Assembly: GCA_003971905.1 (NCBI GenBank)
Contig: RSEE01000064.1
Location: 1 to 64,000, forward strand
Source: Moniliella sp. 'wahieum'
Lineage: Eukaryota
DNA length: 64,000 nt
Direction: 5' to 3'
The stretch's first letter is position 1, and the number at the start of each line of letters is the position of its first letter. Of the stretch, positions 6,125 through 44,666 are shown one piece after another. The position numbers and the translations under genes were made by a program. Under the pieces are notes generated by a model. The model saw only the letters and a list, made by a program, of their open reading frames with translations, was not told the DNA's origin and made no database searches.

Positions 6125-6568
6125 AGTTCCATCCCACAGTCCTTAACAACCTTCCTGAGGCGCGATGTGCGTCGAATTGTTGCCACATCACCCACCAGTG
6201 CCTTGCCCGATTCGTAGATGTGAAAGCTAGACCCTAGAGTTGCGCCGGCGTGTTCACCCCTGTCCCACTGCTTGTTCTGTCCTCGGGGTTATACAGTCGA
6301 TAAAGCTAACATTTAGGTGAAGAGGCGCGGATAACAGTAGGTGAGGAGGGAGCGACCGTACCAATATGCTTTGGTGGGGTTTTGCGCTTCTGTGGCTAGG
6401 TGTTGCATTCCTGTGGCGCAGCTGAGAAGTTAATCGCCTCCAGGCTCGAGCACACACAAGAGCATGATATGAGAGGGGAGAGTGAGGAAGGGAGCACTTG
6501 ACGACCTGAGAGTCGGAACGGAGTTGGGACGACGACCTCTGATAGGGTAACTGCAAGCTCAACTCACA

Positions 6569-9389
6569 ATGACTGTGATTCGCCACCACCACCGCCACCA
6601 ACAACAACAACAACAACAACGCCACAAGCAAAACAAAGGCCTAGACATCATGTCGACTCCTCGCTCGAGCGAGCCCAAGGAAACAGATGAAGAACGGACC
6701 AACAAACTTTCCAAAGGCTCGGACCTTCCGTCCACGCCGGATGCCATCGACTCTCTTCGGCCTCTCACAATTGATAGCATAACACCAACAAACCACGCGA
6801 CGTACAAGAATACTACCCCGTTTTCGTTTACAAAGGCAGTCGAGGACGACAACGAGAATGGGATTGAAACAGAGTCACTCTTGGAAAACGCGCTCTATCA
6901 CAACGACCCACTGCTGAGTCCACATGATGAACCATCTGTGACACGACTTGCGACGAACGAAAACCGGGGATCGGATCAGTGGGGTGAAGGCGCCAACAAT
7001 GGAGATCAAAACGACATAGACGAAGAGAAGGTTCCAGACTTGGCTGATGCGCGTGTGCGTGCAATCGTGCCTAACGAAGACGAACCAGATATGCCATTCA
7101 ACACGATCCGCACTTGGCTGCTTTCCATGCTGCTGGCCCTCGGCCTCACCACCGCCCTCTTTGCTATGGACACCCGAGGAACCTCGGTCGACCCACAGCT
7201 CTTTGTGTCTACAAGTGCGGTGTTGATACAACCATTTACCTACTGTTTGGGTTTTGCGCTATCGAAAATACCGTACCCATCCCAGTGGCCCCTGGCTTGG
7301 TTCATCAACCCGGGCCCTTTCAACCTCAAGGAACATACGTGCGTCCCAACTTCCGGGAACTTGAAGTGGCAGTGAAACAGACCTCTGGCTAACACAAGTG
7401 ATTGTTTCGCCCAGGATATGCACCATCGTCGCTGCGGTTGCCATGGGCCCCAACCTCACCTTACAATACTTAGTCGGACTGGCTGACTCGGCTAGTGGTG
7501 GCGTAAACCCTAGTGCATTCCCACCGGCTTCCTCTTTCTCATCTATATCTCTCGACCCCATTATTTGGGTTTGCCTTGGCCGGTCTTGTCACACGTCTTC
7601 TAGTTTGGCCTGGTGAGCTGATTTATCCTCAGCAGCTTCAGACGAGTGCAATGCTGACGGCCTTACACGGGGTTCGGCGTGGCAACTGGAACCGTCGCCT
7701 CGTTTTCTGGGTTGTGGCAACGGTCATATTCGTCTGGCACTGGATCCCGCTATTTTTCTATCCCCTATCGCAAGGTTCGAGTGGCCGACGTGGATTGCTC
7801 CGTCCAACTTTGTGGTCAATCTATTGTTTCATGGAAAGGGTGGCCTGGGCTGGTCTTTTTGGTGCCTAGACTGGACTGGAGTAATCTCAGCGTTGAGTTC
7901 ACCCTTGATCGTCCCATGGGGCGCGCTGGTCAACGTATTTGTGGGTTCGTCGTTGCCATGTGGATCATTGCCCTGCCGATTTTTTTCACCAACCGGAACC
8001 TAGCGGCCTGCCTTCCCTATGGCCTTATCGACGTGTATTGGGACCCCCGCTGAACACCACACACATGTATTACAACCCCGTGCCCCAAGACATGTATCTA
8101 GATCCTCCTCAATTTGATTCACCCGACCCACCCCAGGGATACTTTTCCGCCACAATCGTCATGACCTGGGCGTTTTCCTATGCCGCATGGACGGATTGCT
8201 CGTGCACACTCCGCTTTTCCATGGCGGCGACCTACGCCGCTGGTGGAAAGTGTCCAAAGTGGCTGATTCGCCTGACCCCACTCCAGCCAACTCGCCCGCT
8301 ACCCGGCTGTTCCCACCTGGTGGTACCTGTGCTTGCTATTGGTTGCCTTTGTCTTTGCCATCCCCATGGTGCACGTGTACGACACTTCGGTACCGGTTTG
8401 GGCGATTGTGCTTGCCCTGGCGCTGGCTGCAATCTTCATTGTTCCAGTGGGCATGGTGGTGGGCCGGACATCGGTGGAACTCAAGTGTGTGGAGCACTTG
8501 GCGACATTAATTGCTGGTGCTTCTCTACCTGGGCACACGACCATCCTTCGCTCTTTCAAATATGCTGCACGGGCACCATCCAGCAGGCGATGCTCTACTG
8601 TGGATGCTCCAAGTTGGCCGTCTACTTTAAGATCCCACCACGGAGCACCTTATTTGTACTCGTGGGAACCCAATGGTCTGCTCAGTGTTGCAAAGTGGAC
8701 TCTGGGTAGGGTGGAGTTCCGATACGCTCAAGGTCAGCTCCACAGCCAAACTGCGGATTACAGGGTTGTACGACCCCATGTATTGGACTGGCGTCGGGCT
8801 TCACAAGAACGGCTTTCTGCACCAATACCAGTGGACTCTGTACTTTTTTCTTATTGGTGCAGTCGCGCCACTTCTCTTATACCTTGCCGGACGGGTTTCG
8901 CCCCAGTTGAATCGCTTTGCTCACCTCCGCTCGATTCATTCGCCGCTCTTCTTTGGGGGTGTATCGCAAATCGCACTTTTTGCAGCGGTTGGCTGGACCT
9001 CCTGGTTTTCTGGGGGACTGTCACTCACCTACTGTTCTCCGTCGTCGGCAGTTGAATTATTGGATTGCGTACGTCCACTACTCTATGTTCCCTTTGTATT
9101 GTTCACGGGATGCATGAGGCTAACTCTCTTCTCTAACAAAATCGCTTGGTTGGTTGTCGATAGGATGAATTACATTCTCTCCGCCGCTGCTGTGGGAAGT
9201 TCGCTTTGTCTAGGCATCATCGCGGCCATGGAGTATGGTACAGAGGGTACTCACTCCAGCTTTACCCGCTTCCTCCATCACCTGAACAAACTTGGGCCCC
9301 AGAACGACTACGGCGATACCGTGGAGAAAGTTCTGGTCTGGAACGACACGTTTTTTCCCAACAGGACAGTGCCTTCTACCGCGTCCTAG
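6569..9389 (+). CDS. OPT-family oligopeptide transporter (introns and frameshifts)
   Basis: DEPDMPFNTIRTW, WFINPGPFNLKEH, KLAVYFKIPPRS and many TM segments. Intron at about 7339-7414 (GTGCGT..GCTAAC..CCAG) and a second intron starting at about 9070. Confidence 0.9.
6583..6620 (+). repeat. (CCA)/(CAA) microsatellite encoding poly-H/Q
   Basis: caccaccaccgccaccaacaacaacaacaacaacaac. Confidence 0.8.
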
Positions 9390-11339
9390 TTGTCCCCTCA
9401 CCAATCCAGCCAGAGACCGTCGGCAGCGCATCGCAGCGTCAACTACGGAATCCCTTTCCCCCTGTCTTTTTTTCTATCTGCCCACATCCAATCGCGATGG
9501 CATATCAGGTTTGTTCTCTCATCTGTCTCTCTGTGCGTTCATCTCTCTTCTTTGTTGGGCATCCAGGCTCAGTTAGTGCATGTACCCAACCCCCCTGCCT
9601 CTGCCTCTGCGTTGCCCCGTTTTCGTTTTTGTTAGGTGGGTGTCGGGATCAGACCCACCTGTGGTCACCGATGGTTACCCGGTTACCAGATTGACTGGAC
9701 AGTGTTTGTTCTAGACCCTGTTTCCCCCTTTGGTCTATACTCCCCTTTGTTTTCTCCGTGTGAATCAGCTCACTTGTCCTCCTCTTCTCCGAGGGATATA
9801 TACCTCGCTCCCAACATGCCACTCGATGAATATGATCTCTATCCTTTCCCCATCTCCATCTCCTGTGTTAAGTAGTGTGGGGGGGCATATTTCTAACCCT
9901 AGTGCCATACGCACGTGACCGTGCATCTTAAGGGTTGGCACATCACATTTGGTCTGGCCTGCAACAGCCGCCTGCTCCCTTTGCCCATCACCACCGCCAC
10001 CCCGTATGCCAACTCATTCTTCCGGCCAGCACTTTCAGCATGTGGTTGGGCCGGCTGACTGTGGATGGACGCGACCAATGTGGGACCATTCCAGGTATCG
10101 TGGGTGTACAACTCGCGCTCCATTCGCTGTATCCGGGGCTCAATCCCCTCTCCTCGAAACAAGCGAGTGGAAGATGACATGCCGAGTGCCAGCTTACTCA
10201 TCGGGTGAACGCATGTACTGTATGGAGTAAGTCCCCACTACTGCACCGCTTGCTCGTCACTAGTCACTGACTTTCCCATTTGAAGAAAGGATGCGCCTTA
10301 TGGGATACACCTGTCCCATCTACTCCGTTACGAAACAGCCCTGGGTACGGGCTTGGCGACTACGCCTGGGCAAGAACGGTTGATTGACGATGATGCGCCC
10401 TCGACAATGCGCGCGTGCGGGCATACGGCAATGGTCTTCCAACAAGCACCGACTGGAGGCAAGAAGTGTGGCCTGTGCCGCATCCCGGGCCACCGACGTG
10501 ACCAGCGCCAAGACTTGGTTGATGCGTCGATCCGGTCGATTGCTCGGAAGAAATGAGTACACCCTGCGCAGGTTGAATGCAGCCCCGAGGACGTCGTGGC
10601 GAACGGGTCGGAGTGAATTGGAACGGTAGCGGCAGCGGCAGCTTTTGATACGCCCCGGGCAAGCGCGCGTGGTTCATCCGGAAGGAAGTCTTATCATGTT
10701 TACTCCTCCTCCGAATCGGTGGGGAGCCTTTTGGCGGTGGTCAAGACGTCAGCGACAGGCGCGGTCGTGGTCGCGGGACATCAATGGAGCCTGTGCGTCG
10801 GTCAACGCGAAAGGCAGCGCACAACGCTGTCTTTGCGCACAGGGTTGCTGTGCGGGGGGGAGGCCTTGCTCCCCTTGCCCAGTGGATCTGACGAAGGGTT
10901 GACGTCGGGTGAGGATGATGAAGACGGAGGGGGACAGGATGGGGGCGGATCGGAGGGCGAGCAGGCCAGCTCGGGGAGGGGCCTGCTGCAGGCGGCTTCC
11001 GGTCCATCGTCCCCTGCCTGACCCGCGGCGGAGATTCTTGACAAGGCAAAGAACACAGGCCATGTTCGCCAACGTGGCCTCGGACTCCATGCTAGCGGGG
11101 ATGCCCTTGTGGAACATCTCTTACTAGTCCATATCAACACCCGCTGACCAACTCAACCCTCGGTGTTATTGTCTCGCCATTGTCGCTCGCCCGCCTATCC
11201 ACCAGCCCCCGCGGAGAAACAGCCTCCTTCAAGAATCGATACACATGGCTCAGTGTCGACCAACCCCTCAGTGCTTCATCCCTTGCCGCCTCATGTATCT
11301 GCATTGTTCGCTTACGTGTCTTGAGTTCTCCGAGGCCTA

Positions 11340-11470
11340 GCATCGTTCAATATCTGCGCTCGAAAGACGGGAGACAGAGTTGGTGATGGTGCTGTTGGCC
11401 TTACGACCCGAGATCTTGGGCAGCGACTTAAGGAGACCGTTGGCATCCACCTCAAAGGTGGTAAGCAGCC
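11340..11470 (-). pseudogene. Short fragment of an SSB-type Hsp70 (substrate-binding domain)
   Basis: LLTTFEVDANGLLK...SGRKANSTITNSVSRLSSADIER. The TITNSVxRLSS signature is SSB-like, whereas the SSA gene in this window reads [12 protein letters not shown]. Confidence 0.75.
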
Positions 11471-12189
11471 GCGCGACAATAGTCGCCCCCCGCCCGTGAC
11501 ACTGAGCTAAGTCCCCCGGGAAATGGTGTTCAAAAGTTTTCCACCCAAGTTGGGCGCGTGGGTGCGACCGACATGACTGCCACTCCAGGCCAACCCCCAC
11601 CCCCCACCCCTCGTGTACCCGGAGAGCGTCGGATGGGACGGGAGCGGTACTACTGCAAAGCGACGGCCCAGGACTACCCTCTGAGCTAGTGCCCGGCAGC
11701 TGGTCCGGGTGAGCTGTTGGGGTCTGGACCGAAACTGCGCACCGCTTGCTCGCCCATCTACTTCCTCTCTCTCTCCTGTCTCCTTCCCTTCAGACGTTGC
11801 TCCAAGACTTGTGGCGCACTCTTTTGCCTTCTTCTTGCAGCTGATGCATTGGATCGCGAGTGCCCCCAAGTCCCAGTTGCTATATAGCTAGCAGGGTTGC
11901 CGGCTATGCACCAGTTGACGAGTTGCCGATGAGACACCTTTTTACTGGTTACCGGTTGCCCCGCAACGCCACATGTCTGACATGCATGACAGTGTGAGAT
12001 GTGACATGTGACACGTTATGTCCAGGGTTTTGCGGCTGCGGTGAGGGTGCGCAGCGGGGGGGGCTCACCGTCCATGTGTTGAGCTCAACGCTCAACACGC
12101 CCAACTCGTTCAACTCAATCGCAGCCCCCCCCCCCGACCCGCTCGCTAGGGGATCTAGCCACACTACCACCTCATCACTCGCAACACCG

Positions 12190-14708
12190 ATGCACCGACG
12201 CTCTCTGCTTGAGCAGGCAATCGCAGATGACGCGCATGCACTGCTCGTGCCTGATCCCTTCTCTACCCCTCGCTCGCATCGTCCAGGGGCAGGGCCAATC
12301 TTCTCCCTTTGCGCAAGATGCTGCGACAGGAAAGGGCCATCCTCCCGCGCGCGCCCTGCCACTCGCGGCGAAGGCAGCGGTGCTGGCGATCCAAGTGTCT
12401 CCATCCCTCTGCCTTCCACCCGACACTTGCTCCCGCAACGGTCCTGGCCCCCAGCACCACGCGCGAACCGAAATCGTAATGAGCCTCGTCCCACCAACCG
12501 CGCCGGCGGGTGATCAACTGTGCCGGTGTGGCGATCGCATGAGTGGGAAATTTGTCCGGCACTAGGCACAGGTACCTTATGATTGCTTTTGCTGCCATGA
12601 CTGTGGGGTTCTGTGGCGTCCAAGTAACTTTGTTCCGGCCCGACGACGAAAGGGGGAACCATATCCTCTGTGTGAGCACGACTATTGCGTCGCAGGAGCT
12701 CTCTCTGTGCCGCCTGCGACTGCCCTCTCGGCTCCTACATCAGAGCGCTCAACAAATCGTTCCACATCGAGCACTTTACGTGCTGGCTGTGCGTGTTGTA
12801 TTTGGTCCGATGATGCCTATTATGAACATGATGGCAAGGTCTATTGTCATTTTCACTTCTCAACACGGTTTGCCTCCCGTTGCAGAGGATGCAAAAGTGC
12901 GATCCTTCGCCAGTTTGTTGAAATTGATCGCAATGGCCGCACTGAGATGGCACCCGCGTGCTTATGATCAAGAAAGTAGTCCTTTGTTCCTTCTGCCTTC
13001 GTTCCTTCGTTCCTTCGTTCCTTCGCCTTCCCCATTCATGATCAGAAGGATTTGCTAACACAAAAGACATATTGTATCGTAGTACTGGAACATTACGCTC
13101 TTGCGCCAGCCGCAAGGATTCGCGCGACACAGCCTGATGGAAGGGGAGGGGGGCAGGAGACGAATCAAAGCTGCATTTGCATCCAGAAACGACGGGCCGA
13201 ATAAAGGAACGGCAGATACTTGTATGAAATCGGCGCGCTGAGGCGTGTACTCGCACTAGAGGCGATCGAGACACCAGCCTCTCTCAAGGCCAAGCAACAA
13301 GCGATGGAGGAAAAGGCAGTGCGAGTCTGGACTGTGCTCTCGGCATTCGAAGACTCGGCGGCATCCTGCATCTCCAACGTGCTGGATGTGCTTGCCGCAC
13401 GCGACTTTCTCGGCGCCACCAGAACGACTGAGCAGCTGATATTCCATGCCGAGCTGCTTTTTGCTGCGACAGACAAACTGGACGACTCCTCGTATGGCGG
13501 TTCACTTCCTGTCGGCCTGCAGTTTGGATGCGTCAGGTGCTACACCAACGCTTCAGGTACTGTGTTGCTACGAGAGACGCGTAGGCTCCACCAAGAAATT
13601 GACAACTTTATTCAATCACTATCTCGCTTTTCCCAACCCCCTTGCCCAGAGAAGATGTCGCAAACTCTTCGTCTAACCCTCCTTCGCCCCACCCTATTCG
13701 ACACTCTCTGTGCGTAGGGTACCATCGTTTTGGAGTCTGGGGAAACCCCCTGTTTAGCCCATCATCGCCTCCGTCGTATTCAAGGATCTCCTTGCGTAGC
13801 GCGTCATTGTTTTCGCCAGATGATGATGCAGCTTCAGGCACCTTCAGGGCCGCCGCCCCCCACCTTCCACAGTCGTCGCGAGCCAGTACAAAGGCCACGC
13901 GTTGGTGGTATTGCCGAAGCGCTTAAGAAACTAACCCAACTGGCGCTTGTGAACGCAGTGCACCTGAATGATGCATTTTGGACAAGTTCCTTGACCAGCT
14001 CGCCCACGTTGAGGTTATCGCAACTGGCGGGACTTCTCCGTATGACGCCGATGATACGCAGCTAGGCTGTGGCTACCCAACCGTTCCGCGCAACTCTCCT
14101 TGGCGTACAACAACAAGTGCGAATCCTTCTTCCTCCGACTCTGACGCTACGTGGACAGACCGATGCGCTGGTTGCCAGCAAAAGGTTGAGGAGGAGTGCT
14201 TTGCGTTCAACAGCTGGACCCGTTGGCACTTGTCATGCTTTCGCTGCGCCATGTGTACCCGTCCTACAACTGCGTCGCTTGCGAAGGACGCAAGCCGTGG
14301 CTCCGCCCCACCTTCCCTGGAGCCTCCTCCCAGTTGACGCCGCTCAGACACCAACTCGGGGACCTCTGTCGTGCCGGAGCCCTGGCTGTGGATCGGTTTG
14401 CGATCGAGATGCACCCATGGACATCAACCCGACTGCGTCATGGCATCCCAACCCCCCTCGATTGGGGACCACCGCCTCCCCCCCGCAGCTGCAGAACAGC
14501 AGGCGTCGGTCTCGGGTTGGGGTTCGACTATGGCTTCTTCGTCGGCACCCCCATCTCATGGAGTAACCTACGCACCAATGTGTGCTGGATGTTTTCAGGT
14601 CACCAAGACACCGCCTTCAGGTTTGAGCACGTTACACTACGGGAGCAGTACGCCTTTTTGCATCGGGTGGCTTTGGTCCACCTGTTTTTCCAAATGGCGG
14701 GGGAGTAA
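12190..14708 (+). CDS. Lrg1/Rga-like LIM-domain protein, N-terminal part only (no RhoGAP)
   Basis: LIM motifs CGDRMSGKFVR, FHIEHFTC..C, DDAYYEHDGKVYCHFHFSTRFASRCRGCKSAILRQFVE and CAGCQQKVEEEC..WHLSCFRC. Lrg1-family segments MEEKAVRVWTVLSAFEDSAASCIS and FEHVTLREQYAFLHRVAL. Intron at about 12976-13082. Confidence 0.8.
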
Positions 14709-15715
14709 AGCCAACAGTTGCGCAGGAGGCACCCCCACCCTGTGGAGCCAGGTGCTGAGACTGTGGTTGGACGGAGCAGAGGCCTGTCCGTGCAGCTCTT
14801 CTCGCCTTCCTCCGTATCCGATCCGAGCAGTCATCAGGGGCATTTCCTGCTCTAGTTAGCATCACATTACGCACAGCATCTTCCATCTGGGTCTGCCGCT
14901 CGTCGAGCCGGAGATCTGGCAGAGCACGAGCACACAATTTGGCGGAGAGCCAAGCTGCCACAGGGGGAGAGGTCTCCCAGAGGTTAGCGCCTTGGTGGGG
15001 GAAACGCAAGGACAAAGGGTGGGTGTTGTGGAACGGCAAGGGGCTGGTGCCTGCGACGCCTGCCTGTCTCACGACGAGAGGGAGGATCAAGGGGTGGCGC
15101 CCGACAGGGCATCTAGTAGATTCATGCTTGATGAGTGATTGGTTGCCGTGGGTCCAGTCAGGGCGGACGGCGTGTTGAGAGCAAGATGGGTGTTGGTTGG
15201 CTTGACCAGAGTCACTTCAAGCGTTGGCCGTCGCTAACCAAGGCGGCCGGGAGTTAGGGTTGGACGACAGAGCGGCGCTGTGGTGCTCGAGGGCGAGCAT
15301 GCTGAGGTAAGACGGAGAGGCGGGGCACTGGCGCTGTGGGGGGGGCGGGGGCGGGGGGGCTCATGTCGGGATGGCATCGCCATGGACATCGACGCCGGCC
15401 GGCATCGGCAGGGCACTGCCGTGGCCGCGAGCAAGGCCAGGTCGCCTCCTCTCCGCTCTCTGCTCGCACGCGGCAAACACAACCCCACACGCAAACACAA
15501 ACCCCACACCAAACAGCCCGCACGCGACAAACGACGCAGGCGAAGGGCACACAAACCAGGGCGGACAGCTGGCAGCCAGCGGCACAGAAACAACACACGC
15601 CCAACCAGCAATCAGCACACAGCACAGACAGCACAACAGCACCCGCCCGCCCGCATCCGTCTACTCGCAGCTCTCAGACGCCGACGCCGCCGCCCAGCCC
15701 CCCCCCCCCTCCTCC

Positions 15716-18700
15716 ATGGACGCCGCCCCTCCCGCGTCCCCCCCGGCACCCCCGCCCGTCAGGGCGCCCACAGCCGACCATACCCCATCCCCATTCCAGC
15801 GCCACCTCTTCTCCATCCGCCTCGACTGGGAGTCCGCTTCTGCCTCGTCCTCCATCCGAGCCGTTACCCCTCCCCGTATCGATCCCAGCGGCGCCGCCGC
15901 CACCCCTCCGCCCGCATCTGTCTCCGCCCCTGCCCCTGTCTCCGTCCTCGCCCCCCCCCAGCGCCCTTCCCGCCGGGTGCCCCCCGGCCGATGGCGGTGC
16001 TGCTGCGGGTGCTTTCGCTGATGCTGGCGTCTCTGTGGAGTTTCACTTGGGCGAGCCAATGTTGCACCTCAGGGTGGGGAACGTGGTGTGCGTCCGGCGG
16101 GGGAGCGACGGGTACATGAGCGCATCCCAGATTTCAGGATCGCCAACCTGTCCGGGTCGAGGGCCCAAAGGTTGCGGAGCATGTCCTCACCGGCGAGCAC
16201 AAAAGGATAACGAATGGGCACGTCCGCTACCGAGGCACATGGATCCCCATTGAGAGTGCCATCCAACTGGCGGTGCAATGCAATGTTGCACACCTACTCA
16301 AACCACTCCTGGAAGCTGATCTATCATCGTTACCCCTTGCTCCACCTTCCCCTCGTCCCCCTTACCTGATATTGGTGGTGCCGCTGCTGGGACACCCGAA
16401 CGTGCTGCTACTGGGACACCTGATCGTGCTGCTGCTGGGACACCCAATCGTGCTGCTGGCACATCCTACCATGCCATTTTTGCACATCCTATGCTAGCGC
16501 CAACACGCCTCCTCCTACTGGCATCCACCTGGTGACCCACTGGAACCAGCCCGTATTCCAGCTAGTGGTACGCAACATTGCGTGCTTGCGGCGGGAAGCA
16601 GATGGGTACGTGAGCGCGACCCGGATCCTCAAAATTTGGAATTGATCATTCGAGAGAAGGTGCTCTCACGATTCCCAGCTGAGAACGCACTCACGGGCCA
16701 CCGGCGCGACGGCACGTGGATCCCACTTCAGGATGCCATCCAGTTGGCACCGAGCTCACGTTTTCCATCTGCTCGAACCGCTTCTCGAGCATGATCTGCA
16801 GTCATCATCACTCGTCTGCAAGTCTGCCTCTGAGCCACCACCCCCTCCGCCCCCAGCCTCCTTGCGTCTGTTCCATCCCACATGCCCGCCCGGTTCTCAT
16901 CCACTCACTGCTGCCTTGGGTGCGTCCAAAGCTGTTGAGCCAGCGATTGCACGTCTCCGCCGCGACGCACGCTTTGCCTCGGTCTGTCATTTTCTCGCCA
17001 CCTTCCAGCCTGCACTTGGGCTTGCCCCTCTCTCGCCCGCGCAGCTGGAACAGGATTTGGTCCATGGGTTGGCTACGCAGACAGCCGAGGTAATTCGCGT
17101 GCTATTGCGCCTTCTCACCCCTGGCACTGTCTCCCCTTCGACCTGGCTCAGTACCCTGCGCGCCGAGTATGATCTCCGCATGCCCTCCCATGCGCCTGGC
17201 TCGGATCCGACGAGCACCCACGCACGTTTGCATCTCTCCCCCGTTCCATCCAGCTCGGCGTTCTCCATGACGTCACGTCATGGTTATCCTTAGCGCCCGA
17301 TTGTATTCTTCGCGTAATGGGCGACGAAACCCATTCCACAAGAACAGTCCGACCCAATAGGGTGGGACCGGGACGGCAACTCGTACTACCTTATTGATAC
17401 GCGGTTGTGGGTACTGTATTCCCATTCGGATCAGTCTGAAGAGCCCCAGGTTCCCGCGGAGACGGAGGAGGCGGGTGCTTTCGATGAACCTGTAGGACCG
17501 GATGGAGGTGGAGACGGGGCCACAGAATCCACCTCTTCATCCGATGATGCATGAGCTCCATTTCCACCGAGGACATTCTCCTATTGTCGGGTCCGGATCA
17601 AAGAACAATCGAGCTCGTTGGCCCAAAACCCCTCCCCGTGAGCCACCACCTCAGCAGGAACACTGTTGCAGGAGGCTTTCCCTCAGGCGGGGACGACGAT
17701 ACGAGCACGGATTCGTCCTCGGGGGATGAGGCAGAGACACCCCCTCGACCCACGACGCCGGAACGCCCACCAGAGCACATGGGGGAGCAGCCCGAGGGCG
17801 AAGTGGATGAGACGGAACAAGTGGTTTACGATGTGCTTCAGTGCAAGCCGATGGGGACAAGCAAGCGCAGTTTGCGCGGTGGGACGAGCAGCTTGAATCG
17901 GACGCGATCGCACTCGAAGCGCCGCTGGAGGGCAAGGTAGAAATGGAGCTGGTTTGTTCCACCCGGGCTGAGTGGGAAGCTTTCTTCTCTGCCCTCCACC
18001 CGCCGCCGCCCAATACCGAAGAGGGGGGAATGACACAAGACGCGGACGAGGCAAACCTGTTTGCCTTTTTGTCGAGCGGGCCGCTGGACAAGATCTTCAC
18101 TGCTGTCGATGCCCAGGCCAAGGCTGAAAAAATCCAGGCAACCCAGGAAAAAGCGAAACTGATGGAGGTTGCGCTAGGCTCGAGGAAGCGCTCGTCTCGC
18201 ATCGTAGCGCAAGAAGAAGAGCGGGTTCGGCGCGACGCGACGGTCGAGGAAGAAACGGCACAGGGACCCGAGGAGAAAGCACAGCGTACGATGGCGAATG
18301 TCAAGCGGAGGCGGCCAGCAGAGAGCCAGACTAAAAGGCGGCTGTTTTGCGCAGATCAAGAGCGAGATGGAGCGGATCGAGGCTCGGCGCATCTACATGA
18401 GAGCATGGCGTGCAAGCAGGGCCAGAAGGCAGGTGAGGGGCTTCTCAAAGTCAGGCGCGGCGGGTGCCAACCCAAAAGATTGCGGTGCCTGCCTCCACCA
18501 GCACCCGATCGATCGCAGCGGAAATGGGGTTCTTCGACTGTGAGGTGTGCGGACGGATGGGGCGCCTGCCGCCGCCTAGTTGGCGGATGAAGGCGTGCGC
18601 TGTGTGTGGCGTTCTGCACCATGTGCGCTGCTGGACCAACTATCTGATTCGGCAGGACATTGCGCCATCGATGGGACTCGGACGCCTTCTATTGCATCAA

Positions 18701-18896
18701 ACACCGCCCCGAGCCCCTTCGCCAGCGCAATGGCGGCATCCCTGAGCCGCCCGACCAGGAGCGGAAGAGGAAGAAGAGGGCGCAGCGCGCCAGTACAATG
18801 CAACAACGCGTGCTGCCTGTCGAAGGGGATATGTCCGTCCCAAGGCTGCCTCTCCTCCGCTGCCCCCGTCGCCACTACCATCCAACCAATCCGTAG
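15716..18896 (+). CDS. Tandem KilA-N/APSES x2 - DDT - WHIM - PHD chromatin protein (frameshifted)
   Basis: APSES1 at about 16030-16320 (CVRRGSDGYMSASQI..RYRGTWIPIESAIQLA..HLLKPLL). APSES2 at about 16525-16800 (CLRREADGYVSATRILK..DGTWIPLQDAIQLA..HLLEPLL). DDT-like LRRDARFASVCHFLATF; WHIM-like PIGWDRDGNSYY and ELVCSTRAEWEAF; PHD CEVC..CAVCGVLHHVRC..FYCIKH. Confidence 0.75.
16378..16466 (+). repeat. 24-bp tandem repeat, about 3.5 copies, between the two APSES domains
   Basis: Unit approximately GTGCTGCTRCTGGGACACCYRAWC, repeated. One frame reads AAAGTPER-AATGTPDR-AAAGTPNR. Confidence 0.85.
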
Positions 18897-19345
18897 TCCT
18901 GGCCCCGCGGCACTCCTCCCGCCTTGCGTCCAGGCGCACGGTGACCTCGTACGCCGAATCTCCCTCGCCGTCCCCGCCCTCGCCTCAACCCCACCCCAGC
19001 ACAGTCCTGTGCGGAATCCATGGATGGGCCGATACCTCCGCCGGTGGAGGGGCAGGATACGCCTCGTTCTCCTCCGCCCTGGAGCCGAAGGAGGAAGAGA
19101 CGATGTATCACTAGCTCGCAGCGACTGTTTCCATTGTATGAGTCGCGTTTCGTCTCTGCGGCGAGGTGGCGAATGGTCGCTTGAACTCCTTTCTTGCAGG
19201 CCCTGTGGGGCTCTGTGTGTATAACAATGCATCCACTTGCCGAAGTCCCTCTGCTGCTCCGGCCATGACCAGCTCAATAACCCCCACTCGGCCAGTATCG
19301 CTAGCAAAAATATAGATTCCACAGCAGTTGTAGCACAACCCCCAC

Positions 19346-20788
19346 CTACGCTTCGACAAACGCACGGAACACCTCTACTTCCTCCCCTGGCTGGACTCGC
19401 CCATGTGTGCGAGCCATGATGGTCAGCGGTACGCCGGTGCCGCGAACACAGCTGCGCCCTCGTCGATCTCCAGCCCGCCCTCTGCGTCACCGAGAGGAAA
19501 GTGATCTGCACATGTCCTCGCGTCGCCAGCAACACGGACGGTCCCTGGATCGCGCGGTGGGTCTCCTCTGTGCCCTCGACGCTGGGCAAAACCGTACGCA
19601 GCACGCGGAAATCGTCAATCGGAGGCCGGTACAGCATCGTTTTGCCCCCGCCTCCCTCCCACGGCTCGCGATGCATCCGCATCTCCTCGCCTGGCGCATC
19701 CTCGTACGTTAGCATTTCCACCAACGTCGCCGTGTCTCGCAACTTGGGTGTCAGCCCCGCCCGCACCACATTGTCGCTCGCCGCCATGCACTCCACCACC
19801 TCTCCCGACAGGTAGGCGTGCGGTGTGTTGGCACCCAAATAGAGCGCCTCGCCCGGTACCAAATGGAGCAAATTGAGCAGATAGGTGCACAGAATGCCCA
19901 CATCATCGGAAATTGGGATTGGAGGGCAAGAACTTGCTTCGAAATGCTTGGTGTCTCGGTAGGATGGAGGGTGCCTGCCTCGTATCGTGCTATCAGAAGC
20001 TCGATTGTATCCTTCACCATTTCAGGGGGAGCCGTCATGATCGCTTCAAAAACGCGACGGAGGACGGCTTTGTGTTCTGCGTCGGGAGTGTCGCCGTCCA
20101 CTGCATGGCCCACATATTGCAACAAGGCATTCTCTCCATGCCAAGCCCACGGGCCACCAGCCCGCGAAGCTCTGCAATGTCATGCAAAAACTGATGAATC
20201 TCCCGCAGAGGGCGGAAGCCACAGAAACCGTGAAAGGTAGTCAACGCTACCACCATCTCTGGCTTGTGGTTGTCGTCGCGATAAATGTCGGGGTGCGAAG
20301 CGTGGAGACGCTGGGCCAGTTGCTTGTCCGGGTGCGCCTGGACGGACAAGGCCTTTCCGACGCTAAGCACCTTGAAGAGGAACGGGAGGGGCGACTTGCC
20401 CTGCAATCCGTACTTGTCCACCACGCCTTGCGACAGCAACGCGGGGTGGGCGCGGAGGTAGGCGCCGAGCTCGATGCGGGCACTGTCAGGCGGCGCGACG
20501 CGGGAGGCTTGATATAGCACGGGCCCGAGGGGTGCGAGCCAATCCAGAGCTGGGCATGCGCGTGGGGGTCAGCGGCGGCGGATGCGGGCTGGGCGCGGGG
20601 AGGGAGCGCACCTCGGCATAGGGCGTGGCAGGGTCGTAGCCGTGGGGGCCCAGCCAGGCGGCGCCGGTGCCGTCAAAGGCATAGTGGGCGACGAGGGCCG
20701 TGGCGCCGGGCATGCCCCACGCGTACGTCTGCATGCCGGGGGCGATGTGGAAGACGGGGCCGTAGGCGCCCAGGTCGAGCGCGGACAT
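19346..20788 (-). CDS. PMI40: Mannose-6-phosphate isomerase, class I
   Basis: QTYAWG, PYAE|LWIGSHP, LPFLFKVLSVGKALSVQAHPDK, DDNHKPEM, PHAYLSGEVVECMAASDNVVRAGLTPK, and C-terminal EVFRAFVEA*. Intron at about 20550-20611. Confidence 0.95.
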
Positions 20789-21400
20789 GCTGGTGGTGCG
20801 GCGGGGGAGGCGAGGGCGCATGCGTGCGCATCTGTCGTATATACACGGCCACGCCAGCGCCCCTGATGGCGCGGTGTGTGATGGCCATCAGGGGCTGCGC
20901 GCCTGGGCGGAGTGGCCCAGCGCCCAGCGCCCAAGCATGCCGCTCCACACACCGCCGCCGTGCCTGCGGCCCGAGCCACTCTTTGCTCCGCAAGGCGGCC
21001 GACCAGAGTGACTAGTCAGCCTAGGCGCCTGGCCATCCCCTCGATGCCGTCCATACGCCCTCGGAATACAATCAACGCGACCATCACCACCACGGGGCCC
21101 ACCACCACCACCTTCGCTTTCCTCTTCTCTCGGCTCTCTTCGTGCTGTCCGTCCTTTCCGCACGCTCGAGCCATCCACATGCTTACCCCCCTCGCCCTCT
21201 CGTCTTTCGCTCGGCGCTTGCCGGTGTTGGGCAGCCATGTGCATGCCCGCCTCGCCAGGCCCGCGCCATTGTTGCTCTTGGGCAGTCTAGATGCTCAAGC
21301 TCTCAAGGCCGAGACCACCTACCTGCACCCGGAAGATGGTTAAATGCATCATCATCAACCATCTCGATCATCGCGTTGGCGGAGCTTGGCCCCCAACGCA

Positions 21401-23097
21401 TTATATACCAACCCAGCCGGCGGAGCACCACACTCCCGCCCTCGCACCTTCCTCTTCACTTCTTGCGCCCGAGACGCTCCGACAGCTCGCGCTGCGCCAG
21501 ACGCTGCCCGCGTTCTTGCGCCGGCCCTGCGCCACGAGCTCATCGAGACGCGTCTTCAGCAGCTCCGTGTTGTCCGCCAGCGGGCACTCCGACAGCGGAT
21601 GGTACGGTGTCGCGTGGCACACCCCGCACTCTTGCACCTTGAAAGCCGCCCCTCCCCGCCGGTGCTCTTCCGCGCCTTCTTTGCCGGCGCCTCCGCCTCC
21701 TCGCTCTCCACCCGGCTTTGTTCGGGCGTCTCACCCGTCCCCATTTCCACAGCGACGTTCGTCGGCACCTCGTCACCGCCAGTAACGGCCGGATCCGCCT
21801 CCAGCGCACGTTTCTGCGGCGTCTGGGAGGCACCCATACCGGGCGGACGGCATCCAAATCGAGGGGGAGGGAAGACGGGTTGGTACGAGTACGATTTCGG
21901 CGGCTTGATATGGATCGCCACCTCCTCTGGTGCCCAGGGGGGCAAGGCTTTGATCTTGTGCTCAAAAGCAGTGAAGTCATTCTGGTCATGCAGCTCGATC
22001 ATCATGCCGCGGTACACATATGCCAACACCAGTGGGTCCGACTTCTTCAGCTTCAAGCGGTTCCGCACAAGCCTCCGTTGCAGACAACGTGGGGATGTCT
22101 GTTCTAGCGTTAGTACAAGCTTAAAATCGAAATCAGCGAGCCACATACCCGTAAGCAAGCGTGAAAACGTCGGGCCACCTAGCACGACAAAGTTAACCGT
22201 TCCTGAGGCAGGGCGAGCAGGTACCGGCTGAGGAAGGGGGAGCGACGGCAGCGACGGTGGAGGAACGTCGGCGCTCGGGGCGTCGGCTTGGCGTGCGGAT
22301 TTGCGCGTCTTGCGTACCGGGCGCTGCCCCGATGCCAGGGGAGCCTCATCGCTCGATGAACCTGCAGCCGCCGCGGCCGCCGCGAGCTCAGCTAGCTCCT
22401 TCTTACTCGGCCGCCCACGCTTCCTTGGGGTGGTAGTAGGCAGCGCAGCTGGAGCTTTGGTGCTGGCGCGTCCACGTTTTTTTACCGTCGGCGCGGGTGT
22501 GGTGGTACCAGCATTCCCGTTTGTCTCCTTGGACGCGTCTTCGGTGACAGGAGCAACCTCTTCATGTGCAGGCGCGGCCTCCGGCTCCTCCCTCCTTGCA
22601 TTCTGACTCTGGGGAAGCGCCTCCGGGCCAGACTCCCCTGTAACCAAGGATACCTGCGAAGGGAGCTCATCTACCTCGGGCTCAGGTTCCTCGGCTGCAG
22701 GCTGAGCATCCTTCTGAGTCGATTCCTCAGGCTCGACGTGCGGCTGATCCTGAACCTTGGACGCGTTGGTTTCCAAGCTGGCCTCCACCTCTTGCTGCGA
22801 TGGCTCGACAAAGCTCTCCTCGGCAAGTTGGGCGGGCTCCTCATCATTGGCGGTAAAGACAGTGTCGGTGGTCTTGTCACGAGGGTCGATGCTGACCTCA
22901 GCCTCGGTTGCATCGGCGTAGGTGCTGGTATCGGCGGCGTCCTTTTTCTTGCTGTCCTTGTGGTCCCTGCGCTTCTTCTTGTCACGACGCTCCTTTTTGC
23001 GGCCGTTCTCCTTCTCCTTGTCCTTGTGGTCCTTGTCTTTGTGGTCCCTGTGCCTGCGTTTGCGGGTACTGTCAGGCTGGGAGAGGCTGGGACTGGG
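21401..23097 (-). CDS. Hypothetical nuclear protein: K/E-rich region, AT-hook motifs, PB1-like segment, C-terminal Zn knuckle (5' exon not resolved)
   Basis: KKRGRA and PRKRGRPSKK AT-hook-like motifs; LVLAYVYRGMMIELHDQNDF; CGVCHATPYHPLSECP. Splice acceptor (CTGAC..CCCAG) at about 23075. Confidence 0.55.
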
Positions 23098-25173
23098 ACG
23101 GAGTGAGAGTGGAGTCAGGCATCTCGTCAGAAGGTACGTCGCCGCGGAGATAGCGATAAAGACTCGCTGGGTCCATGCGATCCCTCTAGAGGGTGATTTT
23201 TGGTCAGACGTTGGTTTAGGCAGGCACTCAAAAGCCGAAATGGGAAATGCGTACCAAAGCGAGAGACGGGTGGTGGGAGGCCAAAAAGGAATTTGGGTCG
23301 TAAAACCGAACATATCGAGCTGAGTGAATTGTTGGAAATTGAATTGGGGAGTTGGCTGCAATTGGGGTCTAGCACTAGCCCAGTCTCGATGTATTCCGCG
23401 AACGAAGCAGACTGAGGAAAAAAAGAGATCGCACAGATTTATTCCGCCAAAAATAGCTTTTTCCCACGGCACTGCGGCAGTTCTCTCACTCACTCGGCTA
23501 GGCTGCACGCTCGAGCCATGCCCTCTCTCCCCCCGTCTTTCTCTCCGCCTCGGTAGGAGGGGGTTGCTGGAACTGCGAATGAGGGATCTGTAGGAGGACA
23601 GAGAGCAGGTAGTTGATCGTGCATTGCATGGCACATGAACTACAGAGAGGCCAGAGAATATTCCTGCCGGAAGGAATATTGAATGCACCGAAGGGAGAAG
23701 CGAGCTTGAGCTACCGGTGCCACTACGCCAGTGTGGCACAACAAATATACCCAGCAACCGGAAAATAATTGGTGGCGGGTTGATGTGTCTGTGGGCATGT
23801 GTCGAAAAGCGTACCCAAACAATTGCAGCCCTACCCATAACATCTGCTGAATGCACGGCTTCGCCACCCATATTCTTGGAAGCAGAGCCCACAGAATCGC
23901 TTCCAGAGCTCCCCATGTAGGCTGTCGTCGTTCATTGGCCAACATTGGGACGGCCGGTCAGTGACCACCCGTCACTGTCAATGCGATTCGATACACAGAA
24001 GAGCTGGCTCCTAACGTACCAAACTAGAATGCTTTTTGTGGCCGCCGGGTAGCGCCAACTGAGAAGCACCTCAGTTGGACGTGCGAGAAACAACAGTTGC
24101 CTTGTGCGGGGGGGCATCATCCGTTCCCGAGAGAAAAAAGACAACTATTAACATGTGAATTCTGTCGTGCATGTATATGCACAAAGTACTGCTCTGAGTA
24201 CTCTGACTGAGTACTGACGATGCAAATCAGTACCAGTCGCCTTGGGCTTCAAGATTGCACAAAAAGCATGGGATCTTTTCAATACTGAGTCACCGGCTTC
24301 ACCGGCTGATCTTTTTAGCCACGCCGCTCTGGCGCAAAACTTGGATAGTACTTGAACATCTTCCCTCCTGCGGAAGGGGGATTAAGCTATGAAGTCTTAG
24401 GCTGGACTGGCTGTACGTACGCTGCTCTCGTTGCGCGTTGCTCGCCCCTCGGCACAGCGCTTCCCCAGCCCCCCCACACCTTGAGAGTCGCTAGTCATTT
24501 GTGGCTGTGTGGTAGGACAGAAGAACTCCACAGCTCTGTCACATGTAAGCCGCCAGCAGCACACTCATGATCAGCGACACGCCAAATTATTATCGAGCGG
24601 GGCCTCTCCGCTTCCCCGCCTGCACTCAGCACCGTGTGTGCCGCAATGTAAAAGCGCTAAGCACTCTGCCAAACCAGCTCCCACATCCGGACTCGAAGCG
24701 ACAGCCGACGTCTGGGTGCTACTTGCCTCATCCAGAGAGAGCTGGCGTGAGGCCTGACATCGGTAAGCTCAAGGCTCTTTTGGGCGCGATCCAGGACGCC
24801 TGCGGCGGATATCGGGCTGGGCAGATCAGATTGGACAGTAGAGTGAGACGGGGCCAGGGGCCAGTCACTAGCTCTCCGTACTCAGTACTCACGCATGGAG
24901 GGGGTGGACATGGCGAACGTACGTGTGCGCGTACGTGTGAACATGTGAACGTAGCCGTGGCCAAGCGCGCCAAACAGTCTGCGCCACCGCCGGCAGCCCA
25001 AACATTCAATATTCACGATAGGGGCTGGACCCTGGCCTTCTCCACCAACGCCACCCCGCCAGCGGCAAAACATTCTGCGCCCAGTGGACATTCGTCGCAC
25101 ATCTGCGCATCCACCCCCGCGTCCTTTTAACCCGCCCGCCATCCCCCTCGCTCCGCTCCCCCCCGCCCCCACC

Positions 25174-41521: not shown

Positions 41522-42080
41522 CCTTTCGTGGTGGTCCGCAGGGGGTAGGCCGGTTAGGGGGAGCGATCACTAGGACTAGAGTGACTAGTGACCGCTGGGT
41601 CCAGAGGGAGGCTTTGAGGCCCCACAAGCGAGATGAATGAATATGTACCAAGTGAAACCGAGGTGATCGATCCGATGACCGGCGAGAGGGGTGAGGCGAT
41701 TCTGGCGAGTAGGCGAAGTAGTAGCACTTGTGCAAGTGAGGCCTTTGAAAAGAGGTGGTTCGGGCACAATCCCTGATCTCTGGTTGGCCGCAACAGCTGC
41801 CCGGTCGCTGCCATCGCTGGGGACTATAGTTGGAACGGCACTGGGCTCTCTCTACGTGAAGGTAAGAAGCTACGGAGACCAAACAGCCAACCTCGACGGA
41901 GTATAGAAAGCAACATCGAGCCAAACATTGGAATTCTTGCAGTACAACGGCCTCGAGAGCCTATCTAAATTCGAGTGAGAACCGTGAGGAGGGGGGAATG
42001 CGCCGATGAAAGGGATGAACAACAGGAAAGGGGGAGACCAGAACAAGTGCGAATAAACTGCTCACAATTAACAAGGCAGT

Positions 42081-44076
42081 TTAGTCCACCTCCTCGACCG
42101 ACGGGCCATCGTCCCCGCCGGCACCGGGAGCCGCACCGCCCGGGAAGCCGCCGGGGCTGCGCCGCCCGGCGCCCCGCGCCCGCATACAGCTTTTGCATAA
42201 TGGGGTTGGCAATTCCCTCGAGCTCCTTCTGCTTGTCGTCGTACTCGTCCTTGGAAGCTTCCTGCGAAGCGTCCAGCCACTCAATCGTCTCCGAGATGGC
42301 CTTGTCCAGCTTCTCCTTGTCGGCCGCATCAATCTTTTCCGACACACCTTGCTCGTTGAGCGAGTTGCGCAAGTTGTACGCGTACGACTCGAGCCCGTTC
42401 TTGGCGCTGATACGAGCCGAAGCAGCCTCGTCCTCTGCCTTGTACTTCCGCGTCGACACCATGCGTTCAATGTCTTCCTTCGACAGACGACCCTTGTCGT
42501 TGGTGATGGTGATCTTCTGCGACTTGCCCGACGACTTGTCGGCGGCCGAGACGTTGAGGATCGAGTGGCGTCCACGTCAAACGTAACCTCAATCTGGGGC
42601 ACGCACGCGGGGCAGCGGGATGCCAGACAGCTCAAACTTGCCAAGCAAGTTGTTGTCCTTGGTGCGGGCCCGCTCCCCCTCGTACACCGAATCAGCACAC
42701 CGGGCTGGTTGTCGGCGTAGGTCGAGAAGATCTCCGACTTCTTGGTAGGCACAGTGGTGTTGCGCTTGATGAGCGGCGTGAACACACCGCCGGCCCGTCT
42801 CGATACCCATCGACAGAGGGGCAACGTCGAGCAGCAGCAGGTCTTGGGTCTTCTCCGACGTGTCACCCGACAGGATGGCAGCCTGAACGGCAGCACCATA
42901 GGCGACAGCCTCGTCGGGGTTGATCGATTTGTTCAGCTCACGGCCGTGAAGAAGTCCGAGAGCAACTTCTGCACACGAGGGATACGGGTCGAACCACCAA
43001 CCAGAACAAATCGTTCACTGACCCTTGTCAATCTTGGCGTCACGGAGGACCTTCTCGACAGGATCGATAGTATGGCTGAAACAGGTCACCGCACAGCTCC
43101 TCGAAACGGGCACGGTGATCGAGGTGTAGAAGTCAATGCCTTCGTAGAGCGAGTCAATCTCGACCGTGGTCTGGGCGGCCGAGGAGAGGGTGCGCTTCGC
43201 ACGCTCGCATGCAGTGCGGAGACGGCGAAGGGCACGGGCATTGGAAGTGAGATCCTTCTTGTTCTTGCGCTTGAATTCCTGGACAAAGTGGTTGACAAGA
43301 CGGTTGTCAAAGTCCTCACCGCCCAAGTGGGTGTCACCCGCAGTGGCCTTGACTTCAAAAATGCCCTCCTCAATGGTCAGCAGCGACACATCAAAGGTAC
43401 CACCACCCAGGTCAAAGATGAGCACGTCGCGCTCCCCGTCAGTCTTCTTGTCGAGACCGTAGGCAATGGCAGCGGCCGTGGGCTCGTTGATGATGCGCAT
43501 CACATTGAGACCAGCAATAACGCCAGCGTCCTTGGTAGCTTGGCGCTGCGAGTCGTTAAAGTAAGCGGGCACAGTAACTACACCGTCCTTAACGTCGCCG
43601 CCGAGGTAGGCCTCGGCCGTCTCGCGCATCTTGAGTAGCACCATCGACGAGATTTCTTCCGGGGTAAACTTCTTCGTCTCACCCTTGTATTCCACCTCGA
43701 TCACAGGCTTGCCGCCCACGTCAACAACCTTAAAGGGCCAGTGCTTCATGTCGGACTGCACTTCTGGGTCGGCGAATTTGCGGCCAATGAGACGCTTGGC
43801 GTCAAACACCGTGTTGTGCGGGTTCATGGCCGTCTGGTTCTTGGCGGCATCGCCAATGAGGCGCTCCGAATCGTTAAAGGCAACATAGGAGGGGGTGGTG
43901 CGGTTGCCCTGGTCGTTGGCAATCACCTCAACGCGGTCGTTCTGCCAGACGGCGACGCAGGAGTAGGTGGTGCCGAGATCAATACCAACCCTGGCGGAAG
44001 GCAAAGAGAAGGAGGTCAGCACCGGGGGTCTTGTGTCGGGGGGGAGGGCGGGGGAGGAGGCACATACCTTGGTCAT
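42081..44076 (-). CDS. HSP70: Cytosolic Hsp70, SSA type
   Basis: [37 protein letters not shown] and C-terminal GPSVEEVD*. Intron at about 43991-44067 after MTK. Confidence 0.98.
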
Positions 44077-44420
44077 GGTGGGCAAAGGAGAATAGCGTGG
44101 GGAGGGGTGAGGATGGGACAGATGGAGGCGAGGCTGGGGCTGAGGTCGACATTTAAACCCATGGCCAATGCGCACGCTGCACAAGCAGGCGGCCGTGCGG
44201 GCACACTGGCTCCGTGCGCTCCCGCAGCGGGCGGCGCAGGGGCAGTGTGCTGTGGCTCTCCCCTCCGCAGTCCAGCGAGACACACAGAAATAGAGCGAAG
44301 CGCAGCGAACCAGCAGCCGCAGGCACGGGCGCAGTGCTCGCACGCGTACACTGCCTCCACGCCCGAGGCGTGGCTGGCTGCGTCCGTCTCCCCCGCATCC
44401 CGTCTGGCAGCGTCCCTTGC

Positions 44421-44437
44421 AGATGCTTCGCGAAGCA
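44421..44437. promoter_or_regulatory. Possible heat-shock element upstream of HSP70
   Basis: aGATgcTTCgcGAAgca, alternating nGAAn-like units that include the 14-bp palindrome TGCTTCGCGAAGCA, about 350 bp upstream of the ATG. Confidence 0.35.
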
Positions 44438-44634
44438 CCGACGTCATTCGGCAGACATCACATTCGCATCACCTCACATCACCCATCCATCCCTCCTGCG
44501 CCTCAGCACACCAACGCTCCGCCGCACGCCCAGCTGGTAACCCTACCGCTGGGGAACCTCTGAACTCACAGATCTAAACGCTTATGTACGCGGCGCCCAT
44601 TAATATTTACCCCGCCCTTCTCTCTCTACTGCAA

Positions 44635-44666
44635 ATCCATCCATCCATCCATCCATCCATCCATCC
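44635..44666 (+). repeat. (ATCC)n microsatellite
   Basis: atccatccatcc..., about 8 units. Confidence 0.9.

Follow-up and report, generated by a model that had tools for sequence, protein, structure and literature searches.

The subject of this report is a candidate gene on the + strand of a 64-kb stretch of DNA (contig RSEE01000064.1, positions 1 to 64,000). We refer to the whole of this stretch as the window, and all coordinates are counted from its first letter. The candidate gene appears to place two APSES/KilA-N DNA-binding domains ahead of a WHIM-type protein body that includes a PHD finger. The window is high-GC nuclear DNA (∼60% G+C), and the named relatives of the studied protein indicate that its source is a basidiomycete.

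The gene is read from an ATG at 15716, which follows a CA-rich stretch, to a stop codon at 18894–18896. An initial annotation of this DNA had quoted a series of motifs for the gene, and every one of them lies where it had been placed, including this start and this stop. Between the two ends, the 3.2-kb coding path switches frame about 13 times, and seven of these switches have homologous sequence on either side that fixes their place (frames are labeled 0, 1, or 2 by position modulo 3, and all are on the + strand). The spacing at most of these changes excludes an intron. For example, in the first APSES repeat the frame-0 segment ends at 16133 and the frame-1 segment starts at 16132. No in-frame stop is present within any homology-supported segment of the gene, and all of the disruptions are changes of frame.

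We lean toward reading this locus as a single, intron-poor gene that begins near 15716, ends near 18896 (or perhaps at 19114), and specifies a product of some 1,060 residues. This product would comprise, in order, a low-complexity N-terminus, the two APSES domains with a repeat-bearing linker between them, a Ser/Pro-rich junction, and a body shared with a family of fungal proteins. Within the body, the predicted order is a DDT-like segment, a WHIM1-like segment with a GxD/YWLF motif, an acidic region, a WHIM2-like segment with RKRSSR and a long charged helix, and the PHD finger.

Two APSES/KilA-N repeats

Repeat 1 (16023–16330) is divided by a frame change into an N-terminal half in frame 0 (16023–16133) and a C-terminal half in frame 1 (16132–16330). 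The first half carries RRGSDGYMSASQI, which ends at 16133, and the second half carries GTWIPIESAIQLA and HLLKPLL. When the 72–75 residues of the C-terminal half were compared with the sequences of solved structures in the PDB, four APSES domains were matched (1mb1, E 1.8e-6; 1l3g, E 2e-6; 4ux5, E 2.3e-6; 1bm8, E 4.1e-6), and the next match after these reached an E-value of only 0.76. In the alignment, EHVLTGEHKRITNGHVRYRGTWIPIESAIQLAVQCNVAHLLKPLLE corresponds to residues 56–106 of Mbp1, a stretch that takes in the GTW(I/V)P and QLA motifs. By this match to the solved Mbp1/PCG2 DNA-binding domains, repeat 1 is an APSES/KilA-N domain. An Atlas look-up, which provides a lead only, likewise placed repeat 1 nearest to KilA-N clusters, with a best score of 0.85.

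Two other searches with parts of repeat 1 gave no APSES relatives. The N-terminal half matched only an unrelated designed protein among the PDB sequences (E 0.044). A word-indexed protein search of longer proteins with the C-terminal half yielded 133 candidates, none at E ≤ 10. The E-values of this search are scaled to 5.8 billion sequences, and therefore a 30-bit domain match cannot pass, so the result does not address the existence of relatives.

Repeat 2 (16520–16798) is distributed over three segments: frame 2 at 16520–16642, frame 1 at 16636–16749, and frame 2 again at 16751–16798. These hold RREADGYVSATRI (ending near 16642), GTWIPLQDAIQLA (ending at 16749), and HVFHLLEPLLEHDL (from 16751), respectively. 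Identity to repeat 1 is 42–48% in the N-terminal half, 51% in the C-terminal half, and 61% in the tail. The three parts are colinear in both units, and both N-terminal halves carry an RRxxDxxxxAT/SxI motif. When each half was used as a tblastn query within the 64 kb, only the other repeat was found (N-terminal halves, E 2e-8 and 3e-7; C-terminal halves, E 4e-5 and 3e-4; tails, E 2e-3), and all other matches had E ≥ 0.01. The likeness of the two repeats is thus greater than expected by chance. A third APSES copy was not found in the window by this method. By alignment, repeat 2 lacks nine wing-loop residues that match the Mbp1 stretch KVQGGFGKYQ.

Taken alone, repeat 2 gives little signal against known domains. 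Its N-terminal half has a sole, weak match in the PDB (4ux5, residues 10–54, E 0.97), its C-terminal half has no APSES match there, and a two-sequence profile of the N-terminal halves of both repeats has no match there. In Pfam, where the cutoff for KilA-N (PF04383) is 23.8 bits, the best score reached is 12.2 bits (E 0.17), and it was obtained at positions 10–27 of the N-terminal half of repeat 2 only; the repeats are split over frames, so Pfam scanned fragments of just 37–72 residues. We conclude from its likeness to repeat 1 that repeat 2 is a diverged copy of APSES type. The two APSES-like repeats proposed in the initial annotation are thus borne out, the first by the sequences of solved structures and the second by its likeness to the first.

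A downstream body related to fungal PHD proteins

The open reading frame (ORF) that spans the junction with the downstream body (215 residues) was searched exhaustively with phmmer against 1.84 billion representative proteins, and 12 proteins were recovered at E ≤ 0.001. The best match, P0001 (1195 residues), has an E-value of 4e-18 and 47% identity over the DDT-like part. A family profile termed A1, built from nine homologs, was run on the three forward frames and gave six matches. In order of position, these are located in frame 2 at 16826–17212 (hidden Markov model [HMM] positions 16–140, E 2.8e-27), in frame 1 at 17149–17331 (124–178, E 1.2e-8), in frame 2 at 17351–17431 (186–213, E 4.5e-7), in frame 0 at 17868–18335 (420–532, E 8.8e-19), in frame 2 at 18206–18970 (514–771, E 9e-7), and in frame 0 at 18660–19064 (675–789, E 6e-4). 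Because the six matches are colinear and cover HMM positions 16–789, they indicate that the window holds a full-length member of the family.

The hallmarks of this family are an LRRxWKFAAVCQF motif, a GxD/YWLF motif, RKRSSR, and a PHD finger, and the order of these motifs in the window gene is the same as in the family. Members include proteins of Jaminaea rosea (BDZ90DRAFT_276179), Parajaminaea phylloscopi (CAO1623486.1), and Dacryopinax primogenitus (XP_040631592.1). Further members occur in Tilletia, Sporisorium, Kalmanozyma, Jaapia, Ceraceosorus, Calocera, and the chytrid Thoreauomyces. Among the family-invariant residues, those of LEQDL, W..LR..Y..R, PIGxD, RLW, VEME, TRAEWE, and RKRSSR are kept in the window copy.

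Four segments of the body can be delimited. The DDT-like segment (16877–17212, frame 2), which runs from LRRDARFASVCHFL to WLSTLRAEYDLR, is recognized by the family HMM, by phmmer, and by tblastn. The WHIM1-like segment (17149–17431) reads AWLGSDEHP...LGVLHDVTSWL in frame 1 and continues in frame 2 as PIGWDRDGNSYYLIDTRLWV (17351–17431), which carries the GxD motif. The WHIM2-like segment with its coiled coil (17868–18335, frame 0) extends from VEMELVCSTRAEWEAF to LGSRKRSSRIVAQEEE and a charged helix. This segment matches P0001 with a tblastn E-value of 8.6e-35, and the same region forms a long helix in the structural model of a homolog. Finally, the PHD-type zinc finger (18485–18720) comprises CEVCG...CAVCGVLHHVRCW in frame 2 and WDSDAFYCIKH in frame 0, with the shift near 18665. 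The metal ligands, of the Cys4-His-Cys3 type, begin with CxxC...CxxC....H..C in frame 2, and the final C..H follows in frame 0 past the frame change. This segment is also covered by tblastn.

The predicted PHD finger is a secure assignment, as the initial annotation had proposed. Pfam detects this domain in 11 of 17 homologs, several above threshold, and gives a sub-threshold match on the window piece itself (E 0.016). The family profile matches PDB chains with PHD fingers (Bye1, E 2.6e-6; 1wee, E 3.8e-5). A Foldseek search with a homolog model returned PHD fingers at probabilities of 0.98–1.0.

The DDT/WHIM assignment of the family depends on several weak but concordant signals. On the window pieces, Pfam WSD (PF15613) reaches 14.6 bits against a cutoff of 25.4 (E 0.039), and a search of the DDT-like ORF piece for Pfam DDT (PF02791) found no family. 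Sub-threshold Pfam matches among the homologs include WSD in five of 17 (best, 22.5 bits), DDT in one of 17 (19 bits; cutoff, 22), and WHIM1 (PF15612) in one of 17 (E 0.042). The UniRef name of the Jaminaea rosea member is WHIM1 domain-containing protein, and the Atlas clusters nearest to the family are WHIM1, DDT, WSD, and RSF1-like (0.75–0.82).

Structural modeling points weakly in the same direction. A model of the N-terminal 202 residues of a homolog (predicted local distance difference test score [pLDDT] 79.7, predicted template modeling score 0.73) was aligned with Ioc3 of ISW1a (2y9z_B) over 172 residues, with a Z of 6.4 and a root-mean-square deviation of 5.3. This match ranks 10 of 48,161 chains and is the longest alignment listed; calponin-homology-like helical domains tie with it at Z 6.4–7.4. 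Foldseek found nothing at E ≤ 0.001 for the 202-residue model. For a model of the whole homolog (625 residues, pLDDT 59), PHD fingers were the sole Foldseek result, and coiled coils that match the long helix took up the list from VIA-align.

From these profile and model comparisons, we consider it likely that the downstream body is a WHIM-type module. The DDT-WHIM label of the initial annotation therefore stands in part: weak profile matches and the UniRef name favor it for the family, but DDT never reaches the Pfam threshold, with no match in the window and one sub-threshold match among 17 homologs. Binding of ISWI by the predicted module would follow from family descriptions only. A DDT/WHIM module is described in PMC8536118 as forming the pocket that binds the ISWI SLIDE domain.

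The remaining parts of the gene are less well defined. The putative start codon and a Pro/Ala/Ser-rich N-terminus occupy 15716–16022, a region that we take to be coding and that has no Pfam matches. This region starts in frame 2, which is stopped at 16021, and frame 0 is open, so a shift is needed before 16022. It contains an 18-nucleotide (nt) repeat of 2.1 copies at 15918–15954. A stretch of the same region, HLFSIRLDWESAS (15800–15850), was considered as a duplicated DDT start on the basis of a weak, uncorrected tblastn likeness to LRRDWKFAAV. We rejected this candidate as chance. At the DNA level, its local alignment score against the real DDT start is 28, and shuffled sequences give a mean of 24 and a maximum of 36.

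The linker between the two APSES repeats (16331–16519) is probably read along a path from frame 1 to frame 0 to frame 2. It holds a 24-nt tandem repeat of 3.4 copies at 16378–16458 (87% matches, 0% indels by Tandem Repeats Finder), which in frame 0 encodes AAGTPxRA units. The period is divisible by three and therefore fits coding sequence. Alternatively, the linker may include an intron of roughly 140 nt that ends at the AG of 16496–16497.

The acidic, low-complexity middle region (17432–17867), whose frames were assigned by eye against a homolog alignment, is the least certain stretch of the gene model and probably contains further frame changes. The family profile has no significant match over this region, and a possible R-x-S-x-R...W...P motif lies near 17560–17640. 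The basic C-terminal tail and the assembled stop (18721–18896) are in a frame-0 ORF at 18648–18896. A frame-2 continuation to 19108 is still aligned by tblastn with the tail of P0001, and the true gene may end at 19114 in frame 2 instead of at 18896.

The junction and alternative readings

The claim that the two halves belong to one protein depends on the sequence that joins them. The junction (16799–16876, + strand) is Ser/Pro-rich, rich in runs of C, and open in frame 2. The last APSES-homologous codon is at 16798, and the first family-homologous codon is at 16826 according to the HMM or at 16877 according to tblastn. The two regions of homology are separated by 28–80 nt, are in the same frame, and have no stop between them. 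Both HVFHLLEPLLEHDL and LRRDARFASVCHFL are held by one stop-to-stop ORF in frame 2 (16646–17293; 16733–17293 from its first ATG). From the end of the APSES homology to the DDT motif, frame 2 contains no ATG. The out-of-frame ATGs are at 16791–16793 (frame 0) and at 16882–16884 (frame 1). Tracing of the frame by codon usage and by G+C content at third codon positions was indecisive at the junction, because the signal is too weak and contradicts homology-defined frames nearby. We judge it somewhat probable that this sequence is one true ORF in which two APSES domains are fused to the WHIM-PHD body.

How far an open frame can be trusted in this assembly was assessed with other conserved genes in the window. 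The HSP70 gene (41968–44457, − strand) is distributed over three ORFs that hold Pfam positions 2–324, 398–475, and 476–598, of which 475 and 476 abut. Sequence motifs that we read as those of HSP70 run on across seven frame switches in about 600 nt (42480–43110). The mannose-6-phosphate isomerase gene (19300–20887, − strand), which is convergent with the studied gene, has residues 79–175 and 253–395 of 1pmi in different frames, and its QFP/DDVG junction, as read from the bases, is one base off a continuous frame. Because these two genes carry the same type of frameshift, the simplest reading is that the frameshifts in the studied gene are indel errors of the assembly and not signs of decay. 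The noise is uneven, and two long ORFs of 744 and 791 residues are intact. The HSP70 gene shows the sequence to be locally very indel-noisy, and thus claims of gene structure anywhere in the window need polished sequence. The assembly is unfit for fine claims of this kind before polishing.

The initial annotation had stated that the junction needs no frameshift correction. For the assembly in its present form this holds, but the indel noise makes a hidden indel in the C-run-rich interval 16799–16885 plausible. In an assembly with up to seven indels per 600 nt, one such error would split the frames of the two halves.

The alternative that survives best begins from this point, and we regard it as unlikely but worth serious attention. 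It holds that an APSES-only gene and a DDT/WHIM-PHD gene are encoded by two abutting or slightly overlapping ORFs, or that an extra short isoform exists, and that a hidden indel in C-rich sequence creates a false shared frame. The downstream product would start at the ATG at 16882 (MPAR...) or at 16791, and it would be expressed from a bicistronic transcript or from an internal promoter. The local indel rate is high enough for this explanation, which nevertheless requires an error at one particular place. Stops in frame 1 at 16829 and 16936 could close the APSES-only ORF. Two independent eukaryotic genes would also require a terminator, a promoter, and a 5′ untranslated region, for which the 28–80 nt between the homology spans leave no room. 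The start codons of the family bear on the same question, since all 22 listed homologs start near the DDT-like motif, most of them with MPRR and P0020 with MPARRS. The ATG at 16882 reads MPARFSS, which resembles these starts, and it could be the ancestral start codon. Frame 2, however, fits P0001 better across this ATG (PPGSHPL vs. APGSDPL), and the frame-2 alignment to the family profile already begins at 16826, upstream of this ATG.

The resemblance of MPARFSS to a family start and the plausibility of a hidden indel thus weigh against a single fused ORF, and several further observations must be counted with them. On the window's own pieces, none of KilA-N, DDT, WHIM1, or WSD reaches its Pfam threshold. 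The window copy departs from the family at several invariant residues, with A for W and H for Q inside the DDT-like motif and F or Y for W at other sites, which could reflect relaxed constraint. The family-type start close to the motif is missing from the fused frame, and this could also reflect a hidden indel. Lastly, the closest relative, P0001, is clearly unfused in its first exon: it and its cluster start independently at MSRRR, and no upstream extension of their ORF reaches an APSES domain.

A second alternative is that a chimeric join or a collapse in the assembly has brought together APSES and DDT/WHIM-PHD sequences that are unlinked in the genome. The low base quality of the assembly and the low-complexity, C-rich sequence at the junction are compatible with such an artifact. 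However, indel noise differs from structural error, the two halves are on the same strand and in the same frame, and no repeat, composition break, or duplicated sequence is present at the junction. We consider this explanation quite improbable.

Very unlikely is the reading of the locus as a decaying pseudogene, in which the frameshifts would be real mutations in dead copies of a family gene and an APSES gene: the number of frame changes, the replaced invariant residues, and the incomplete wing loop of repeat 2 could be explained in this way, but frameshifts in HSP70 and mannose-6-phosphate isomerase are of comparable or greater density, the invariant residues of the family are mostly retained, and no nonsense codon falls inside a homology-supported segment.

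Other features of the window are as follows. The intact 744-residue ORF (57016–59250, + strand) has a GH79 C-terminal domain, and the intact 791-residue ORF (21556–23931, − strand) has no Pfam match. ORFs with a Pcf11 C-terminal domain (44610–45752) and with a Pmp3 proteolipid domain (54541–55512) are both on the − strand. An OPT oligopeptide transporter gene at 6551–9694 on the + strand is frameshifted as well, and its pieces (Pfam positions 2–76 and 343–435) fall in several overlapping ORFs that differ in frame. Pfam found no families in the ORFs upstream (11340–15216) and downstream (20518–22228) of the gene.

Relation to known systems and possible function

If the fusion is genuine, then its architecture is unusual for the family. 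We compared 22 family proteins, leaving out P0011 as a low-complexity match. The A1 profile search scored the best 8,000 word-sharing candidates and returned eight proteins, and the survey is accordingly a sample and not a census. The LRRxWKFAAVCQF pattern lies at residues 29–98 in 19 of the 22 proteins, and the other three have variants equally near the start. Most of the proteins begin with MPRR, 29–65 residues ahead of the motif. The cases at position 98 are those of P0001 in its long form, and the other members of its cluster begin 46 residues further on. Indeed, P0001 and P0013–P0017 have two predicted lengths, 1195 and 1149 residues, which differ only by these 46 N-terminal residues. In the longer form the ORF has probably been called too far upstream, because the shorter form starts with MSRRR, which is like MPRR. 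Similarly, all 11 real phmmer matches have the DDT-like stretch within their first 70 residues. In the window gene, the motif is found ∼413 codons past the ATG at 15716 and behind two APSES domains in frame.

KilA-N is present in none of the 17 family proteins scanned. Given this count and the position of the motif near the start in the sampled proteins, an APSES-fused architecture is not common, and in this respect the initial annotation is supported. The fusion, if real, is young and lineage-specific, and it is seen at a single locus of a poor assembly. Overall, what the initial annotation had observed is confirmed, and its interpretation is supported in part.

In the literature searched, KilA-N joined with WHIM was not found, nor was APSES joined with DDT or WHIM. 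Tandem APSES domains were also not found, and where "two APSES" occurs it appears, from titles and the openings of abstracts, to mean two proteins. The two papers that mention both APSES and ISWI carry each term only once. To our knowledge, the window protein would be the first with APSES domains in tandem.

Repeat 1 resembles the APSES domains of Mbp1/Swi4-type factors in the GTW(I/V)P and QLA region (1mb1, 1l3g, and 1bm8 are S. cerevisiae Mbp1; 4ux5 is also matched). Unlike these factors, the window protein appears to have tandem domains with a remodeler-accessory-type body behind them, its repeat 2 is without nine wing-loop residues, and neither an ankyrin nor a Swi6-binding region is seen behind them in the frames that are readable.

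The family body, in turn, appears to share a helical module, a GxD...YW motif, and a second helical motif with accessory subunits of ISWI (Ioc3, Itc1/ACF1, BAZ1A/B, BAZ2A/B, BPTF, and RSF1). It also has a PHD finger, as do BAZ, BPTF, and RSF1 according to the domain list in PMC8536118. In contrast to these subunits, the family lacks WAC, MBD, and bromodomains, and its Pfam matches to DDT and WHIM are sub-threshold.

Proteins that combine a DNA-binding module with DDT/WHIM on one polypeptide, as appears to be the case here, include the plant homeodomain-DDT proteins RLT1/RLT2, BAZ2A (TAM/MBD-DDT), and ACF1/Itc1 (WAC-DDT). RLT1/RLT2 are named as ISWI subunits in PMC11950633, the title of PMC8536133 names HD-DDT, and the abstract of PMC8600091 mentions the TAM domain of BAZ2A. 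The DNA-binding module in the window differs from those of these proteins in that it is of the APSES/KilA-N type, which is fungal-specific, and is duplicated. Thus, the joining of DNA binding with DDT/WHIM is already known, and the new aspects would be APSES as the partner and its duplication.

A functional link between APSES factors and remodelers already exists in yeast. In S. cerevisiae, Swi6 brings Isw2-Itc1 in trans to the sites of Mbp1/Swi4, as reported by Donovan et al. 2021 (PMC7968928). There, the link is a small helical Swi6 epitope that is bound non-covalently by Itc1's WAC domain, and the accessory subunit is of a different family. The fusion in the window would make the same connection in cis.

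These comparisons suggest how the predicted protein could act. An APSES module would be placed ahead of a family protein that elsewhere has no DNA-binding domain. One or both APSES domains would recognize a specific DNA element, as Mbp1/Swi4-type factors do, the WHIM-type module would dock an ISWI-type remodeler and linker DNA, and the PHD finger would read the histone H3 tail. A single polypeptide could then direct nucleosome spacing or sliding to particular sites in cis. We put forward only tentatively the proposal that tandem APSES domains joined to an ISWI-type WHIM/PHD accessory subunit constitute a self-targeting nucleosome-positioning factor, and thus a natural Rosetta-stone protein.

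How ISWI-type remodelers find their sites is an active question, and a covalent APSES-WHIM-PHD protein would provide a simple, testable case of targeting in cis. If the proposal is true, then APSES domains can act in tandem. It would also mean that, in other fungi as well, the WHIM-like PHD proteins of this uncharacterized basidiomycete family act at promoter elements to which APSES factors bind (MBF/SBF-like). The fusion would therefore give a functional lead for a fungal WHIM-like/PHD family that is conserved and unstudied.

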